A stretch of DNA of 49,253 bases, filler included, from Catajapyx aquilonaris (taxonomy: Eukaryota): assembly GCA_000934665.2 (NCBI GenBank). It is 2 parts of 2 records of this genome, joined end to end, with 100 filler letters (N's around TTAATTAATTAA, not from the genome) between each part and the next. Parts side by side here need not be neighbours in the genome. Positions count along the whole stretch, not along the records: positions 1 to 24,571 come from JYFJ02005487.1; 1 more part is not named here. One strand, 5' to 3'. Under the pieces are notes generated by a model, which saw only the letters and a program-made list of their open reading frames with translations, did no database searches and was not told the DNA's origin. Below are positions 2,030 through 10,717 of the stretch, in pieces; the stretch's first letter is position 1; each line of letters starts with the position of its first letter. The translations under genes were made by a program, and so were the position numbers.

Positions 2030-3270
2030 GTCACATGTACTTCATAATATGTACCGTACTTACAGTATGTACCAGTGCTTGTAGCGTACATATCAAGTAC
2101 ATGTACTTGTATGTACGTTGCACATACCCCTGTTTGTATGTATGTTACTTGTATTTGTATGTACGTTAGACCTACACATACTCATACTGGTATGTAGGCT
2201 GCGTTACATGTACTTGTATGTACTATATCGCTCAAAAAGATGGAGACGATTTTGCATTTGGTTTCGACGCAAAATCGTCTCTTTATCTTTTTGAGCGATG
2301 TAGTACTTTATATGTGCATTACATGTAGTTGTATGTACTTTATACGTGCATTACGTGTACTTGTATGTACTTTATATGTGCATTATGTGTACTTGTAGGC
2401 TATGTAATATCTACCCTACATGTACGTGTACTTGTATGTACGTAATATGTACCCTACATGTAGTACATGTACTTGTATGTACGTAATATGTACCCTACAT
2501 GTAGTACATGTACTTGTATGTACGTAATATGTACCCTACATGTAGTACATGTAGTACATGTACTTGTATGTACGTAATATGTACACTACATGTACGTGTA
2601 CTTGTATGTACGTAATATGTACACTACATGTACGTGTACTTGTATGTACGTAATATGTACACTACATGTACGTGTACTTGTATGTACGTAATATGTACAC
2701 TACATGTACCCTACATGTCATGTACTTGTATGTACATAATATGTACACTACATGTACGTAATATGTACCCTACATGTACTTGTATGTACGTAATATGTAC
2801 ACTACATGTAAGTGTACTTGTATGTACGTAATATGTACCCTACATGTAGTACATGTACTTGTATGTATGTAATATGTACCCTACATGTAGTACATGTAGT
2901 ACATGTACTTGTATGTACGTAATATGTACACTACATGTACGTGTACTTGTATGTACGTAATATGTACACTACATGTTCGTGTACTTGTATGTACGTAATA
3001 TGTACACTACATGTACCCTACATGTACATGTACTTGTATGTACATAATATGTACACTACATGTACGTAATATGTACCCTACATGTACTTGTATGTACGTA
3101 ATATGTACACTACATGTAAGTGTACTTGTATGTACGTAATATGTACCCTACATGCACATGTACTTGTATGTACGTAATATGTACCCTACATGCACATGTA
3201 CTTGTATGTACGTAATATGTACCCTACATGCACATGTACTTGTATGTACGTAATATCTGGTAATATGTAC
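2030..3270. repeat. GTAC/CATG-rich minisatellite (units ~32-41 bp, core TACATGTACTTGTATGTACGTAATATGTAC)
   Basis: About twenty near-identical units at 2400-3255 with degenerate flanks. Lies upstream of the CAG acceptor (3372-3374) that precedes the HIBCH ATG. Confidence 0.95.
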
Positions 3271-3376: not shown

Positions 3377-4678
3377 ATGCTGAGACGATTGGTCCAACTT
3401 CAGCGTGCAATTAGTCCTCGTTTGTGTGCCATGTCCACAGCAGGAGAGTCGCAAGATGTCATCTTGGAGGTTAAGAACGGGAAGGGAATTGCGACGCTCA
3501 ATAGGCCGAAGGTATGATCGCATTGTACGGCTCGTACTTGGTACTTAAGCTGTTTTACGTTTGCAGGCGCTGAACTCCTTGAATCTCGGCATGTTGCGGT
3601 CGTTCTATCCTGCGCTGGTTGACTGGGAAGGGAGCGTGGATATGGTGATGATTCGAGGTGCGGGCGAGAAAGCCTTTTGCTCAGGCGGGGATGTCCGAGC
3701 CATTGCAGTCGCTGCCAAGAAGGGGGAATTGGGCATGCCGCGAGACTTCTTCTCCACCGAGTACAAGCTCAACAGCTTGATCGGCTCGCTGCACATTCCA
3801 TACGTGGCGTTACTTGACGGGATTACCATGGGCGGAGGAGTCGGCGTGTCCGTCCACGGCTACTTCAGGGTGGCTACAGAGCGGACAATGTTCGCAATGC
3901 CTGAGACTGCCATCGGGTTCTTCCCAGACGTCGGCGGATCCTTCTTCCTTCCCAGACTTGGCGGAAACCTGGGCACATTCCTGGGCCTAACCGGATTCAG
4001 GCTGAAAGGCAGGGACGTACTGAAAGCCGGGGTGGCGACACATCTGTGCGACTCCTCAAAACTGCCCAGCTTGGAAGAGGAACTGATCACAATGAAATCG
4101 CCAACTGCAATCGCAATCGAAGAAGTGCTCGACCGGTAATGGTAGCATCTTGGTTGTTTTGAGTTCAAGTTGATTAACCTTTCTTGTAGGTACACCACGG
4201 AGGCGACATTTGGATCCGATAATTTCGTGCTGGAACCTCACCTGAAGGAGATAGAGTCCCACTTCGGCCACCAGACATGCGAGGAGATATTCGCATCGCT
4301 CGATAAGGCGGCTGGGTCATCAAAGTTCGCCACCAACACTCTCGAAGGGCTTCAGAAAGTGTCGCCGGTGTCGCTCAAGGTGACGCTTCGGGCCCTGCAG
4401 GAAGGTGCGGAAAAGAGCCTTCAGGAATGCCTGCAGATGGAGTTCAGGATTGCGATGCAGTTCACTAGAGAGCATGATCTGTATGAAGGTAATGGTCGAA
4501 ATTTGTATTAGTATGACACGTGGCACCAATGCAATCTATTTTCCAAGGCGTACGAGCAGCACTGATCGACAAGGACCAGAAGCCAGCCTGGAAGCCAAAC
4601 TCATTGGAGGGAGTCACGCCCGAGCATGTACGCAAATTCTTCGCACCACTTCCGCCTGACGAAGAACTGCAACTGTAA
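3377..4678 (+). CDS. HIBCH: 3-hydroxyisobutyryl-CoA hydrolase, mitochondrial (crotonase fold), 377 aa; exons 3377-3511, 3567-4135, 4190-4488, 4548-4678
   Basis: Motifs [42 protein letters not shown] and [13 protein letters not shown]. Arg-rich N-terminal targeting peptide. All introns GT-AG; 1134 nt in frame. Confidence 0.95.
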
Positions 4679-5386
4679 AAGGATTACGACGAAATGATGA
4701 ACGTTCCTATTATTTTTTTTTATAGAGTCTATTTTTGTAGGCATGGTGCTAAAAATCTGCATTTAACAGTGTAATGCTGAAATAGATACGTGCAAATATC
4801 CGAATGATAATACGAACGTTCTTGCAAGTTGCGAACTCATTTCTTTTTTTTATTCAAGGGAAATTGTAAAAGACAGGTGGACGCCTTTCTTTCTCTCTCT
4901 CAATACTTATCAAATGTCTCAACACATATTCCTCCCGCCCCAAAAAAGAAAAACTCTGGACTGTTAGGGACTTCCCCCCTCCCCTGTACGTAAAAAGAAA
5001 ATGCGAGTGAACAGACCCCACTGGTAAATTGTTTTTATAAGTCATATATACAGCAAAAATTGCGCTATACATCCGAAAAAAGAGCGGGGGAGCGGACGAG
5101 TTCACCAGATTTATTGTTATTTGAACAAAGACCGATGAAAAATAATTTATACAGGGCCCCACAAAATAATTAATTGAAATCCAAATCGCCCTCTTGCAAC
5201 ACGAGGGTTGGAAGAAAAATTGTTTTTGCTTTTTTTTTCAAAATGTAAAGGTGGGAAATTACGCCACAAACCACAAATATTGTCCAGAAAAAAATGAAAG
5301 ACAGGACCTCGAACGAAACGAACTAGACCTCATGGTTGGGTTGTTTTTTTTTCCAAGTTTTGAGTGTGCTGCTTCTGGGGGTTTTA

Positions 5387-8300
5387 TCAGTCGATGTATT
5401 GTGCCAGCCATCGGAATCCTTCGCCGTATCCCTGCCTCTTCAGAACTGAGCACATGAAAAGCTCCAGTGGACGTCCCGGGAGCTCCGTTCTGGCCACCTT
5501 GCCCTGCAAAAACAATGGTTTTATCAATCCGCATTTAGCTTCTTCAAGGTGCAACAGCCTTACCTTTCCTGTGGTCTGGCCATACAGCCCAAACCAATTC
5601 CTGAGCTCGTCCTCAGAAGCTGCCCCTGGCCTGTCGATCTTGTTGCCGAGGACGAGGATCGGGCAGTTGCAGAGCTGCTCATCTGTCAGCAAGGAGTCCA
5701 GCTCCACTTTGGACTCCGAAAAGCGATCCCGGTCGCACGCATCAATGAGGAATACAACCGCATCCACGGCCGGGAAGTAATCCTTCCATACACGCCTCGC
5801 TGAAATTACCAAACAATTGAAATGCCTATCGAACAGCACATTACAGGCCCTGTAATGGACACGTACAACTACTTCGCAATCATTACAAATCAGCACTGAG
5901 CGAATCACTCGCACATTTGAGCGATTGTTTTCAAACAATAACAACAACACATTTCATCGACCTGAACATTTTTGAGGTAATTTACTAGTCGACAACAAAT
6001 TGGTTTCGATGCACCAGTCGTGGCCGTTACTTTCACTTAAATTAACAATGCAGGTAGTGCATAGGTTGAAAACCAGGAGTATAAACAAGCTCATAATGTC
6101 ACCTTGATGATGTCCTCCAAGGTCAAAGGTTGTGAATCGCATGTTCCCTATGGAGAGCTCTTCCGATGCTGGAAAAAAAATCAACGGACTGCGATTAGAT
6201 TTAGCCCGCAATTAAGCATGACATGCAAATTAAAACAGTTTGTGGTCCAATGTCGACTCGGCTTAACTCATCCGTAACTTCGGGTAATTATACACAACAA
6301 GCAGTGAAATGCGGATTCCCACTACTGAACCAACAAAAGGCCAGTCGTACACGAGAAAGATCTTCATACTCGTACTGCTATGTAAAATTCACAATATGAA
6401 AATATTCCTTCTTAGTGAGTCGATATGACTTTTAAGGCAAATTCTTGCGATTATTTAGCAATCAAAGGTACGTTCATGACTCTGCTTGATATAACGCATA
6501 AGCAATTTCGAAATAATAGTGGGAAAAACCAGAGTTCATTAGCTTCAAACGGGCATTCTCTCCCGCAATTTTTTAAACCTTAAACTTGTGAACTGAAACC
6601 AAGCACTTTTAATTACTTTACTACCGCAAAGAGCCGTCGGCGTACAGTACAAGTTATTACTACGACTAGGTAAATGCTTAGCAAATTATGTTGCCAAAAA
6701 AAGCACTTGTTAGTTATTAAACGCTTGCTCCCTCGTTACAACAAAGGACCACAAAAACAATGATAAGCTGGATTTGTTAAGACGGCAATAATCTCACTGG
6801 CGTGAAGGGTGGGGACGTGCTGGGCCATCCGGTCATCTTTGAGCATGTGCAAAAGGGTGGTCTTCCCCGCATTGTCCAGACCCAGGAATAGCAATTTGCC
6901 GGACTTGTTCCACAGACCTGCGATTATTTTTAAAAAAAAGAAGAACATAATAATCACATCATTAACTAGATAAAAAAATGCCGGGGTCAAAAATACCATC
7001 CCGCACAAGAGTGGGAATAATCGGCAGTAAAAAAAATGTACTCAGGGTCACCTAAGCATGCAAAACCTGCTCCTGACCTTCAAGTTTTTTTTTTCTCTCG
7101 TTCCATTGCACAGCTTCCTGTTAATTTTGTTTTTTTTTTCTAAATGTTTCTCAGGTGGAATCAACTGCACTGCGCAGCTTTGGAGAAAGTTTTTTCTTCT
7201 TCGCAATTAGCATATCCCCACCCCCACACGGATCCGTACTTGTTTAAAGTTGATCAATCGTCACCTTTCACTTGCCAAACAGGTGGCCTCAAATTATTTT
7301 CGATGCAAACATTTCACTGAACATGACGAGCACAATTCGCTACAAATGCTCATAAATGGCCGCCGATGACTGATTATATTATTAACGAGGCTACAATTCA
7401 GCAACGACTATAATTCAAAAGCGATGGTGCAGTACTTGTTAGCATAGGTAACAACTGAAGCTTAATTTCACAACTTCAACATGCACACATTTACGGCAAG
7501 TGAAAGGCGATGCATCATCGAAAATGCTTTCAAAACGACTTACTGTATGGAATCGGATCTATTTGATCCTCGTCGACCAGCAATCGCAACAGAGTCGCTT
7601 TACCGGAATTTGCCAAACCTGCAAACGCCAGTCGCGGCTTCTTCCAAACACCTTCAATAAAAATTCGGGGGGCCTTTAATTTTGCGAGAAAAACAGACGA
7701 CACAGAAACAGCTGTTTTCATGATCTGGCCATGCGCCAATTGCACTTGGAACAACAGTCCTTCCCCGGGGTTATTGTGTAAGTTTAAAATCTGATTCAGG
7801 AGCAAGTTTCTTTGCCAAGGCTTTTACGCTTTGTCCTTTTTTATATATACACGTCATCAGCAGCAAGCAACACCTTTCTTATCTAATCGGACCAGTGGGC
7901 CAAGATAATCATCTCGACATTGTTATGAAGCATCCTGCATGATCATGGCAATTCGCTGCAGAAATTGGGGTCAAAGTTCGTGTGGGCAACACACTTCCAA
8001 TACTGTAATGCAGCTTAAGAACTCGTAACATTGTAGATGTCATCAAAAATTTTCAAGCTTCGTATGCAAAAAGATTTTATCTCACTTGAACTTTGTGATG
8101 TAAACAAGTGGAAATCTCAAGCTACTTCTGAAATGAATCATGGTTTCTGACGATGTGTCAGCAATTTTTGAAGAAAACGGTCGTTTAATTATTATCATTA
8201 CATAAAATAAGTACCAGGATGCTACGAAGCGACCCACGAATCGTAAATGTACACCTGAAGAATTCGAGTAATGTTGCGCTAAACCAAGCTGTACGTGTAA

Positions 8301-10397
8301 ATTACGCCAAACAATTTTTCCCCAACTTACGACACCACTGTTCACATGTTTGATGCCTAATTATTCAATTCCCTGCAATACTTTTTAAATGGGTACGTAA
8401 ATCGACAGTCACTTCGAATTAATTTCATCCGAAGGTGATATACAGCATGGTATTTTGTTATGTTTTCATTCAGTGAGGAAACTTAAGGTCATGTCACAAC
8501 CTGTAACACTACACGGATATTGCTAAACAGAATTTCCATGTTAAATTCAAGGCAACTGGCTTCTAAAAATGGACGTGGCAGCTGCAAAGTGTGTGAAATC
8601 GAGGTGGAAGCTGGTCATTTGAGTAATTCAAAATGGTGTGTATGACAGCTCATGTCTTTTCAATTTTAAGAAAATGGTACGTACTGACATCAGCGTCACA
8701 TCAACTGACAAAAATTTTGTCCAATTTATCAAACACTCTGGCATTAATGATGTGCTCCGATTCACTTTTCTTCACAGCATATAAACAGAGGCAACAAGTT
8801 ATATGTAATCACTTAACGACACAAATTTTTTTTAAACAAATTTACGGCCTGTTAAGACAAGCATCATTGTTAGCACGAGACTGGACACTGAAATGTAATC
8901 TGCTCAATAGTTACAAAATGTTTCAGGTTGTTTCAACTCCCGTCATTGTGATGTCTTGTCTATTCCCTTGTCGCATGCAGCACAATGCCTCATGTGACTA
9001 GAATTAGGATTGCATTATGTTCCTCAGAAATTCTATTTCAGATGAGCAAAAATTGCGTATCGTAAAATCCTGCATTACAAAATAAACTACAATATTCAAC
9101 CTTACTGTACACTTACATTGCACATTAACTAAATCCAAGCAGCCGTTAAAGTACTTAATAAATTGCGCCCAAAATTGAGGTCAGCACATATTGCGCAGAA
9201 GTGGCGATCGATTAATAATTGGCCCACCATTAAGAACACTTGCAAACTGTGCTGACAGGTAGTCGACATAAATTTGTCATTAATAAAATTATATCAAAAA
9301 ACTGGGCAAACATATACAGCAATACCGCGCTTCATGACCAACTTTAAATTACAGTAATTTTAATCACTTTCAATGCTCCATTGCTATCACGCATAATAAG
9401 CGCAGGCGTACCATTTAAAAATCAATTAATCTTCATTTCACATGGTTATTATTGGTCCAGCATGTTTTAAGGCTGTGCACTACCAATACCGCACTTCATG
9501 ACCCAATATTTTCCCAGTAATTTTAATAAGTTTCAACGCTCCCCTTGCTCTTAAGGTATGTGTTTACATGCGAGTTATTTGACAAGCGAATCGGAGCGAT
9601 TAAGTCGCCGAGCAAAGGAACCAATATGGTTCGAGGTGAAAGTAACAATCAATTTATTATTATACTATACTATGTATTCTTCTTTGTTAATTGTTAATCT
9701 GGTGTCTGCCTCCCTGCGGAATGAGGCAGAGAGGTTAATAAATGATCGAGGGCCGTTTTCTCGAACAGTGGTTCAAATGTAAACCCGGTTCAAAGCCGGT
9801 TTAAACCCTTGACAACAGCCTAACAACAATCAAATCAGGGATTAAACTGGCTTTGAACCCGGTTTACATTTGAACTACTGTTCGAGAAAACGGCCCTCAG
9901 AAAGTAACAATCGATTTTCGTCTCCCTTCAATACTGGTTACCCGCTCGGTGATGACATTGTGCGATCAAATCACTCGCATGTAAATCCTGCTTTACACAT
10001 AGTAAGTGCAGCAATAATCATTTTAAAATCCATTATTCTTACTATTCATGCGAGCGATTCGACGAGCGTCGCCAAGGCTGACTAACCCGAGTAACCAGCA
10101 TTGTTTGAGGCGAAAATCGATTGTTAACTTCTATCTCGGCTAAGACTTCGCTTGTCAAATCGCTCACATGCAAAACGTAAAAGGATAAACATGTTACGGC
10201 CTTATTAACGCTATTTATGCAATGCACTTCTCAAGTACGCCCCAGCTGCCTCTGTACGTTCAGCAGGGCAATGGCCGTGTTCTTTTAGGTCATTAGTTCC
10301 GCACAACATCTCCGCATTGGTCAACTTGTACCATATTTTGCGCCGGATACTCACCTAAGTAGCGCAGCACGTTTGTGAACCAGTCCCAAAGGAACAT
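5387..10397 (-). CDS. SAR1: COPII small GTPase Sar1, 193 aa; exons 10397-10355, 6917-6798, 6168-6103, 5799-5564, 5503-5387
   Basis: [15 protein letters not shown] amphipathic helix, [10 protein letters not shown]-loop, DLGGH, NKID and [17 protein letters not shown]-terminus. GT-AG introns; 582 nt in frame. A 5'-UTR intron lies at 10423-10486. Confidence 0.96.
7544..7651 (-). other. Putative alternative (duplicated, diverged) SAR1 coding exon 2
   Basis: 108 nt between TTTTTATTGAAG| and |GTAAGT, phase 1 at both ends like exon 6917-6798. Encodes [36 protein letters not shown] versus [40 protein letters not shown]. Confidence 0.7.
9750..9896. mobile_element. PIF/Harbinger-like fold-back MITE (147 bp)
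   Basis: Near-perfect inverted arms of ~60 bp, beginning GGGCCGTTTTCTCGAACAG and ending CTGTTCGAGAAAACGGCCC. The 3-bp flanks are imperfect (CGA/TCA). Confidence 0.7.
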
Positions 10398-10717
10398 CTT
10401 TGTGTATGTGTGTGTTCTAAAGCCTGCGGGGGGCAGAACAAGTGATTAGAACACATGCTGTTGAATTGGAATAGGCCTCGAGTTACCTTTCTTTTGAGAG
10501 AGAAGAAGAGGTCACCGAACAGGACCCCGAGGCAGTTAAAATCGTGGTTGAAAGGTGGGGGACAGTAATAATACTTTGTTTTTTTAAAAAAAATGAGTTG
10601 AATTTTTTGGGGACTTAAAAAGTGGGGGAGAGAGAAGTGGACACAAGACTTTTTTTTCCCCCGAAAAAATCGAACGTGTTGAGTGGAAACCGAGCAGGTC
10701 TCTCGCTTAGCTGCGAG

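Follow-up and report, generated by a model that had tools for sequence, protein, structure and literature searches.

The SAR1 gene of Catajapyx aquilonaris (assembly GCA_000934665.2) contains a second version of the exon that codes for its P-loop. The gene lies on the minus strand of the 49,253-nt stretch of DNA analysed here (hereafter the window), which joins parts of two records of this genome; positions 1–24,571 are from JYFJ02005487.1. The second version, called exon 2′ here, is located between 10355 and 6917, upstream of the canonical exon 2. It is very probably a genuine alternative coding exon of SAR1, conserved across lineages. The alternative exon is already present in the public annotation of other insects. 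Exon 2′ in this lineage and the cross-lineage pattern of P-loop decay are new. The best explanation overall, which we favor with some reserve, is that exon 2′ is an old, selected exon whose product may be a minor, regulated alternative that handles Mg2+ and GTP poorly and modulates export by coat protein complex II (COPII).

The structure of the SAR1 gene was set by a spliced contig of 1367 nt (depth 215) from run X1. This run consists of Logan contigs and its kind of library is unrecorded; the contig is spliced at five introns and thus behaves as RNA. The gene has five coding exons. Its parts are as follows, in the direction of transcription.

10487..10657, minus strand: 5′ untranslated region (UTR) exon, from the run X1 joint 10422/10486 (cut +1), with the contig reaching 10657.
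10355..10423, minus strand: coding exon 1, with the ATG at 10397–10395, from the sequence and the run X1 joints.
10354–6918, minus strand: intron 1, 3.4 kb, which houses the alternative segment.
7652..7672, minus strand: acceptor region of exon 2′, with the AG at 7653–7652 in the context AAG followed by G, and a short pyrimidine tract interrupted by purines, read directly.
7544..7651, minus strand: putative alternative exon 2′ of SAR1, 108 nt, phase 1/1, stop-free, coding for a 35-residue peptide.
7538..7543, minus strand: donor of exon 2′, the consensus GTAAGT.
6798..6917, minus strand: canonical exon 2, 120 nt, phase 1/1, coding for the P-loop GLDNAGKTT and switch I, from the run X1 joints 10355>6917 and 6798>6168.
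6103..6168, minus strand: exon 3, 21 residues with the DxxG of switch II and the catalytic His, common to both isoforms, from the sequence and run X1.
5564..5799, minus strand: exon 4, with the NKxD motif (GNKID), common to both isoforms, from the sequence and run X1.
4819..5503, minus strand: last exon, coding at 5503..5387 including the stop (5389–5387), with the 3′ UTR to at least 4819, from run X1 and the end of the open reading frame (ORF).

Exon 1 codes for 14 residues and the first base of a Gly codon. This is the N-terminal hydrophobic or amphipathic part, which is common to both isoforms. When exon 4 was used as a query against proteins, the matches were arthropod SAR1, with the best named match 88% identical (scorpion) and an unnamed one 90%. 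Among these matches, isoform X3 of Cephus cinctus, isoforms X1 of Orussus abietinus and Neodiprion pinetum, and a Timema model with both versions depart from the others precisely at the position of exon 2. Two SAR1 introns, 10424–10486 (63 nt) and 5504–5563 (60 nt), are very short beside the 3.4-kb intron 1. The latter stays open in frame, and ORF lists run straight through it. The spliced contig stops at 10657, where a loose stretch of 20 T follows the 5′ UTR; this could be the real end or a library artefact.

Exon 2′ codes for β1, a non-canonical P-loop (GLANSGKAT), α1, and a shortened switch I. The original prediction described a stop-free segment of 108 nt with an AG acceptor, a GTAAGT donor and phases 1/1, and all of these are confirmed on the minus-strand sequence. 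Its alignment with exon 2 also holds. In BLASTP, 15 of 35 residues are identical and 21 of 35 are positive (E = 5e-9), and the gaps in the nucleotide alignment are all multiples of three (3, 3, and 12 nt). The two exons are thus adjacent, homologous and of equal phase, and code for the same structural element. Exon 2′ probably originated as a tandem copy of the P-loop exon. Its acceptor looks weaker than that of exon 2, although this is a reading by eye only. Open frames of this length are not rare, as 9% of the 108-nt sections of the 3.4-kb intron are open in a given frame. Across the intron, an open exon of the form AG...GTRAGN with a length divisible by three is closed by a single donor, and this is the donor of exon 2′. 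These statistics, together with the profile search among 1659 six-frame ORFs described below, rule out a chance ORF.

Exon 2′ and exon 2 differ at 17, 11, and 25 of the 35 first, second, and third codon positions, respectively. Within the window, the proportion of differences is 0.85 at synonymous sites (pS, saturated) and 0.39 at replacement sites (pN). Ten of the 15 residues identical between the two exons use different codons. Since pS is saturated and pN is 0.39, exon 2′ has been kept by selection. An equally old neutral copy would lose its identity, frame, phase, and both splice sites, so exon 2′ does not look like a neutral relic. The peptide of exon 2′ is 43% identical to exon 2 and about 50% identical to the alternative exon of Timema. 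Canonical exons hardly vary between sponge and insects, whereas alternative exons are 31–60% identical to one another, which indicates that the latter are constrained, under a different and looser rule. Taken together, the sequence differences suggest that exon 2′ has been held by purifying selection since the duplication. Selection had been proposed from diverged DNA with a persisting frame, phases and splice sites, and it is supported here by the contrast between the two classes of sites.

Orthology to the alternative SAR1 exons of insects was examined with a profile of seven such exons, from which the window's own segment was left out. Among the 1659 six-frame ORFs of the window, the profile found only exon 2′ (53.4–53.8 bits, E = 1.3e-15 among these ORFs) and exon 2 (22.5 bits). 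The next ORF scored 4.5 bits. Two independent rows scored 59.2 bits (Dendroctonus, found by a profile search) and 37.2 bits (Acanthoscelides, found in a scan of 146 proteins), and canonical exons scored 20–27 bits in that scan. In the maximum-likelihood tree, 10 alternative exons including that of the window are split from 16 canonical exons with 99/99 support; the tree used only 30 columns, and the order inside each set is not resolved.

Exon 2′ also shares derived characters that are absent from exon 2. They are Ser before G-K, Ala after Lys, and Glu at the D-E position. Ala after Lys is seen in the window, Timema, and three beetles. In switch I, exon 2′ carries the family-specific motif I-D-P-(V/I)-P-(Y/W), which is found in the window and the insect alternative exons and not in exon 2. 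The length of 108 nt equals the size inferred for Timema, whose tandem model has 229 residues (193 + 36).

Several public models swap the canonical exon for the alternative one. These are SAR1b isoform X1 of Dendroctonus ponderosae (XP_048519608.1), isoform X1 of Orussus abietinus (XP_012283480.1), isoform X1 of Neodiprion pinetum (XP_046416000.1), isoforms X1 and X3 of Cephus cinctus (XP_015590495.1 and XP_015590513.1), and CAH1996375.1 of Acanthoscelides obtectus. The models of Dendroctonus, Orussus, Neodiprion, and Cephus are from RefSeq; isoform X1 of Diprion similis is named in their clusters, and its sequence was not read. XP_015590513.1 of Cephus is the same as the canonical isoform X4 (XP_015590522.1) outside the position of exon 2. 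Some SAR1 isoforms of Cephus cinctus also show a shorter and different C-terminus (...TTGKKGHNAWQYPQEERRHL). It occurs with both versions of the P-loop exon, so that SAR1 of this sawfly has a further alternative event.

In other models, of Timema, Blattella, and Tenebrio, both exons are present in tandem, and the alternative exon comes first, the same order as in the window. A HMMER search of 1.84 billion representatives with the 35-residue peptide of exon 2′ gave 15 proteins at E <= 0.001. Four of them were inspected, and all are SAR1 fragments with the alternative exon followed by the canonical exon: Blattella germanica, Timema podura, Tenebrio molitor, and a beetle-like Logan contig. The other 11 matches are 429–3205 residues long. 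A word-indexed protein search with the same peptide gave 17 candidates, none of which was scored, and scans of metagenome contigs for related loci gave 483 and 596 pattern matches, none of which was confirmed by tblastn.

The profile scores, the tree, and the shared derived residues of the window and insects indicate that the duplication is older than the divergence of this arthropod from cockroaches, stick insects, beetles, and sawflies. An independent, lineage-specific duplication is ruled out by the tree split and the shared derived residues. The segment is thus a true duplicate of the P-loop exon, as had been proposed, and is orthologous to the exons that take the place of the canonical one in RefSeq models of sawflies and a bark beetle. 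It is not hidden in general, as the same arrangement is annotated in other insects.

The residues changed by exon 2′ are described here with the numbering of hamster Sar1 (alignment with PDB 1f6b), which agrees with PMC2150902 for Asp34, Thr39, Leu57, Asp75, and His79. Use of exon 2′ replaces residues 21–59. Asp34 is changed to Ala, and the Mg2+ ligand Thr39 is changed to Ala. In the sections of PMC2150902 that deal with these residues, Asp34 is invariant in the Sar1 family, and Thr39 ligates Mg2+ and is essential for the function of Sar1. The sequence GLANSGKA of exon 2′ does not fit the Walker A pattern GxxxxGK[ST], and it has Ala in place of the Sar1-invariant Asp34 of GxDxxGK.

The same positions are changed throughout the alternative exons. 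The P-loop ends with GKAT in the window, Timema, Dendroctonus, Acanthoscelides, and the Logan beetle contig. It ends with GKAS in Tenebrio, GRST in Blattella, GRHS in Cephus and Orussus, and GRRS in Neodiprion. GK[ST] is kept in none of the 10 alternative exons, while GKTT is seen in all 16 canonical exons. Asp34 is missing from every one of the 10 alternative exons and present in all 16 canonical ones. The N-terminal motif, switch II with His79, and NKxD are coded by shared exons and cannot diverge without harming the canonical protein. The requirements of the alternative isoform itself are therefore visible only in exon 2′. To judge from these residues, they evidently do not extend to the canonical ligands of Mg2+ and phosphate.

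Exon 2′ has one residue fewer ahead of β1, and its switch I (residues 48–59) is three residues shorter. In the MAFFT alignment, a Tyr is aligned with Thr56 (the Thr of VPT), the equivalents of Leu57-His58-Pro59 are absent, and the junction Thr comes next, although the alignment of this loop is uncertain. The junction Thr would be coded by ACA, formed by the final A of exon 2′ and the CA at the start of exon 3 (6168). The original prediction regarded it as a residue of switch I. The codon would form with exon 3, but the residue corresponds to Thr60 of hamster Sar1, one residue past switch I as delimited (48–59) in the relevant section of PMC2150902. This Thr is not conserved across the alternative isoforms: it occupies the junction in the window and Cephus, but is replaced by Pro in Orussus and Neodiprion and by Ala in Dendroctonus. 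Thr60 is not the Mg2+ ligand of the P-loop, nor presumably that of switch I, which in the GTP state is Thr56.

The canonical exon 2 of the window has its own peculiarity in the same region. Its end (6798–6803, minus strand) codes for ...PTLHA, which gives switch I as TLHATSEEL, not TLHPTS. TLHPTS is seen in all 12 other canonical SAR1 rows that cover the position; the cut models of Blattella, Tenebrio, and the Logan beetle contig fall short of it. This would be a change of Pro59 to Ala in switch I of the main isoform, and the spliced contig of run X1 agrees with the genome there.

The difference between the two exons is also seen in comparison with the Pfam Arf family (PF00025). Taken singly, exon 2 scores 49.5 bits, while exon 2′ reaches 16.6 bits and falls short of the 22.3-bit cut-off. 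For the whole protein of Cephus, the scores are 183.3 bits (canonical) versus 127.6 bits (alternative). Whole alternative isoforms of other species pass at 127–156 bits through their shared exons. FDLGGHHQ (G3 and the catalytic His) and GNKID (G4) would likewise be present in the alternative product of the window through the shared exons 3 and 4. AlphaFold2 models of the Dendroctonus alternative isoform are uninformative, with mean predicted local distance difference test (pLDDT) values of 52.5 (20 aligned sequences) and 64.2 (111 aligned sequences). The entire N-terminal half is below 50 pLDDT, the shared exons included.

Exon 2′ is probably a substitute for exon 2 rather than an addition to it. 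Splicing 10355>7651 and 7544>6168 would generate a Sar1 protein of 189 residues. This product would keep the N-terminal part for the membrane and for recognition by Sec12, switch II with the catalytic His, NKxD, and the C-terminal half. Its β1, P-loop, α1, and switch I would be replaced. The description of the segment as a candidate mutually exclusive exon for a GKA variant is the right kind of reading, given that its orthologues are swapped in RefSeq models; in run X1, however, 10355 is joined directly to 6917. A different N-terminus from an internal start in the intron was also considered. The upstream ORF has a Met, but exon 1 is common to the RefSeq isoforms of other species, and there is no support for an internal promoter.

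A search for inverted repeats of the docking and selector type in the region gave 14 pairs. Pairs of 14–15 nt are near chance by our own rough estimate, and the strong pairs are hairpins of repeat elements far from both exons. The only pair that stands out, and its neighbor, are as follows.

7252–7285 and 7486–7519, minus strand: imperfect inverted repeat of 34 nt, 74% complementary, starting about 25 nt downstream of the donor of exon 2′.
7291–7305 and 7516–7530, minus strand: neighboring 15-nt pair beside the 34-nt repeat.

The 34-nt repeat is a candidate RNA stem and could affect the splice choice.

In formal terms, the SAR1 pair would count as a tandem-duplicated cluster of two mutually exclusive exons, and clusters of this kind are common in arthropods. 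Clusters such as those of muscle myosin heavy chain, as far as they are described in the excerpts of PMC2257972 and PMC3912159, similarly consist of adjacent homologous exons of equal phase coding for the same element, are conserved across arthropods, and swap an element of the nucleotide site. The SAR1 pair differs from these described clusters in that it has two variants only, and one of them breaks the consensus of the catalytic site rather than tuning it. The annotated SAR1 isoforms of insects are the closest counterparts. They have the same exon at the same position after exon 1, the same junction phase, a non-canonical P-loop, and the shared residues S-G-(K/R), E, and I-D-x-(V/I)-P. The GKAT of the window is identical to that of Dendroctonus, Acanthoscelides, and Timema, in contrast to GRHS or GRRS in sawflies. 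Dendroctonus differs by a long insertion in switch I, absent from the 108-nt exon of the window. The window represents a different arthropod lineage, and its exon is known from the genome sequence, whereas in the insects the swap is seen in public models.

Two forms of Sar1 per organism are also known in vertebrates, as SAR1A and SAR1B (PDB 8dzm, 8e0a, and others), presumably for different export needs. They are coded by separate genes, and the SAR1B chain, the one of the two that was read, keeps GKTT; here, one gene swaps an exon and the variant is without GKT. Another counterpart is the laboratory mutant Sar1[T39N] (PDB 8e0b, "Sar1bT39N"; PMC2150902). According to PMC2150902, the block of COPII budding by T39N results from interference with Sec12, and this inhibition requires the N-terminal motif. 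The mutant resembles the predicted alternative product in the loss of the Mg2+-ligating Thr of the P-loop and in keeping the N-terminal motif. Exon 2′ also alters Asp34, α1, and the whole switch I, and it has Ala rather than Asn at residue 39, so that the functional likeness is one we infer.

As the most likely mechanism, the alternative isoform would be a minor and regulated form that binds Mg2+ and nucleotide poorly. It would compete for Sec12 or for exit sites of the endoplasmic reticulum (ER), much as Sar1[T39N] does, and would tune COPII export instead of driving budding. Because the inhibition by T39N needs the N-terminal motif, which is kept through exon 1, a competing minor isoform is the most economical model. 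The proposal of a pseudo-GTPase or dominant-negative form (GTPase, guanosine triphosphatase) is made stronger by the lack of GK[ST] and Asp34 in all 10 alternative exons, and it is still a proposal. That the alternative product is a nucleotide-impaired regulatory isoform is suggested by the P-loop residues, with confidence that falls a little short of even. The interpretation as a whole stands in part: the duplicate, its selection, and its orthology to swapped exons are borne out, and the details of the junction Thr and of the hidden arrangement are not. A broader version is doubtful, although worth stating. In this version, arthropods have carried a built-in, nucleotide-impaired Sar1 for several hundred million years, a natural counterpart of T39N that acts either as a brake or tuner of COPII or as a GTP-independent form that binds membranes. 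As a brake, it would trap Sec12 or occupy ER exit sites. Such an isoform would have escaped notice because nobody looked for it in the common model systems.

Several points weigh against a minor, regulated, nucleotide-impaired isoform. The abundant contig of run X1 joins 10355 to 6917. In this run, the sole one examined, no joint touches 7651 or 7544. No contig of the run lies over 7544–7651, and an intronic contig at 7669–7923 (depth 3.3) ends 18 nt upstream, which is a blank and not evidence. The abundant contig without exon 2′ indicates that the alternative form is at best minor or tissue-restricted in that sample. With lengths divisible by three in both exons and 626 nt of intron separating them, exclusion is enforced neither by the frame nor by steric hindrance, and public models with both exons exist, such as that of Timema. 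Word-indexed searches recovered the alternative exon from no groups other than Blattodea, Phasmatodea, Coleoptera, and sawflies. The window retains Lys38, so that some nucleotide binding is possible. Switch I, which is also important for contacts with the guanine nucleotide exchange factor and effectors, is rebuilt.

The strongest of the other explanations is that exon 2′ is used and yields a functional GTPase whose kinetics or choice of partners differs, specialized as SAR1A and SAR1B are, and not an inhibitor. Lys38 is kept in Timema and the beetles as well as in the window, and Blattella keeps Ser after its Arg. All other G motifs come from the shared exons, the hydrophobic pattern of β1 and α1 is conserved, and whole alternative isoforms pass Pfam Arf. 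However, the full GK[ST] and Asp34 are both kept in 0 of 10 lineages, and the sawflies with GRHS or GRRS have lost both Lys and Thr. The position of the VPT Thr in switch I is occupied by Tyr, Trp, His, Ala, or Glu, and Thr39 is described as essential for Sar1 in the part of PMC2150902 cited above. A working GTPase is thus an unlikely product, although one that should be kept in mind.

Exon 2′ could also be included along with exon 2 as an insertion of 36 residues, as in the Timema models, or its inclusion could be mainly unproductive and regulatory. The two exon lengths would keep the frame, tandem public models exist in five Timema species, Blattella, and Tenebrio, and the inverted-repeat search found no mechanism that enforces exclusion. 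The tandem records, however, have no isoform names ("unnamed protein product", "hypothetical protein", "small monomeric GTPase"), while the RefSeq isoform models of four genera and the Acanthoscelides model swap the exons. Two units of β1, P-loop, and α1 in series would presumably be unfit for one GTPase fold. We consider joint inclusion improbable.

Least probable of all is a silent relic, an old duplicate no longer spliced in this lineage and open by accident, as could be suggested by the skipping of exon 2′ in the abundant contig, the frequency of open 36-codon frames in the intron, and the weak-looking acceptor (AAG, poor pyrimidine tract); against it stand synonymous sites that are saturated relative to exon 2 while replacement sites are not, a profile match 31 bits above that of exon 2, the shared derived residues (Ser before G-K, Ala after Lys, I-D-P-x-P-aromatic), and the intact splice sites, phase, and 108-nt length, the last equal to the 36 extra residues of Timema.

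Other features were observed in the window. Intron 1 of SAR1 contains an inverted repeat of 62 nt (9748–9809 and 9837–9898), 94% complementary with a loop of 27 nt. Related inverted copies are located in the same intron at 9563–9590 and 10147–10174, and at 9899–9924 and 10107–10132; they look like nested small repeat elements. Odd joints of low depth in run X1 fall within these repeats (9590>10142, and opposite strands at 10089/10136). At 2299–3256 lies a complex tandem array of about 22 copies of a 38-nt unit, with a higher-order period of 345 nt (89% matches), and motifs of the GTACAT type are abundant in it. A gene of the ECH_2 enoyl-CoA hydratase family lies at 3549–4511 on the plus strand, convergent with the 3′ end of SAR1 (Pfam PF16113, 261.9 and 83.5 bits in two exon ORFs). 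It has a separate contig in run X1, with the joint 4485>4545 over a 59-nt intron. We take this gene to resemble 3-hydroxyisobutyryl-CoA hydrolase.

Formation of every COPII vesicle begins with the Sar1 switch, a protein regarded as one canonical GTPase. A literature search found no paper on an alternative P-loop exon of SAR1, with most subscription journals outside its coverage. In the Drosophila Sar1 papers PMC2875407 and PMC6681134, where "splice variant", "isoform", and "transcripts" were looked up, there is no discussion of Sar1 isoforms. The exon persists in this arthropod and in four or more insect orders, and never with GK[S/T] or Asp34. These facts point to a selected form of Sar1 that does not need normal Mg-GTP chemistry. 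Should ER export indeed be regulated by this form, insect secretion, in pest beetles and sawflies among others, would have a new control point that is genetically tractable, and the form would be a natural experiment on Sar1 without its Mg2+ ligand. If the product is a working GTPase instead, it would be a measure of how far the P-loop of Sar1 can drift.

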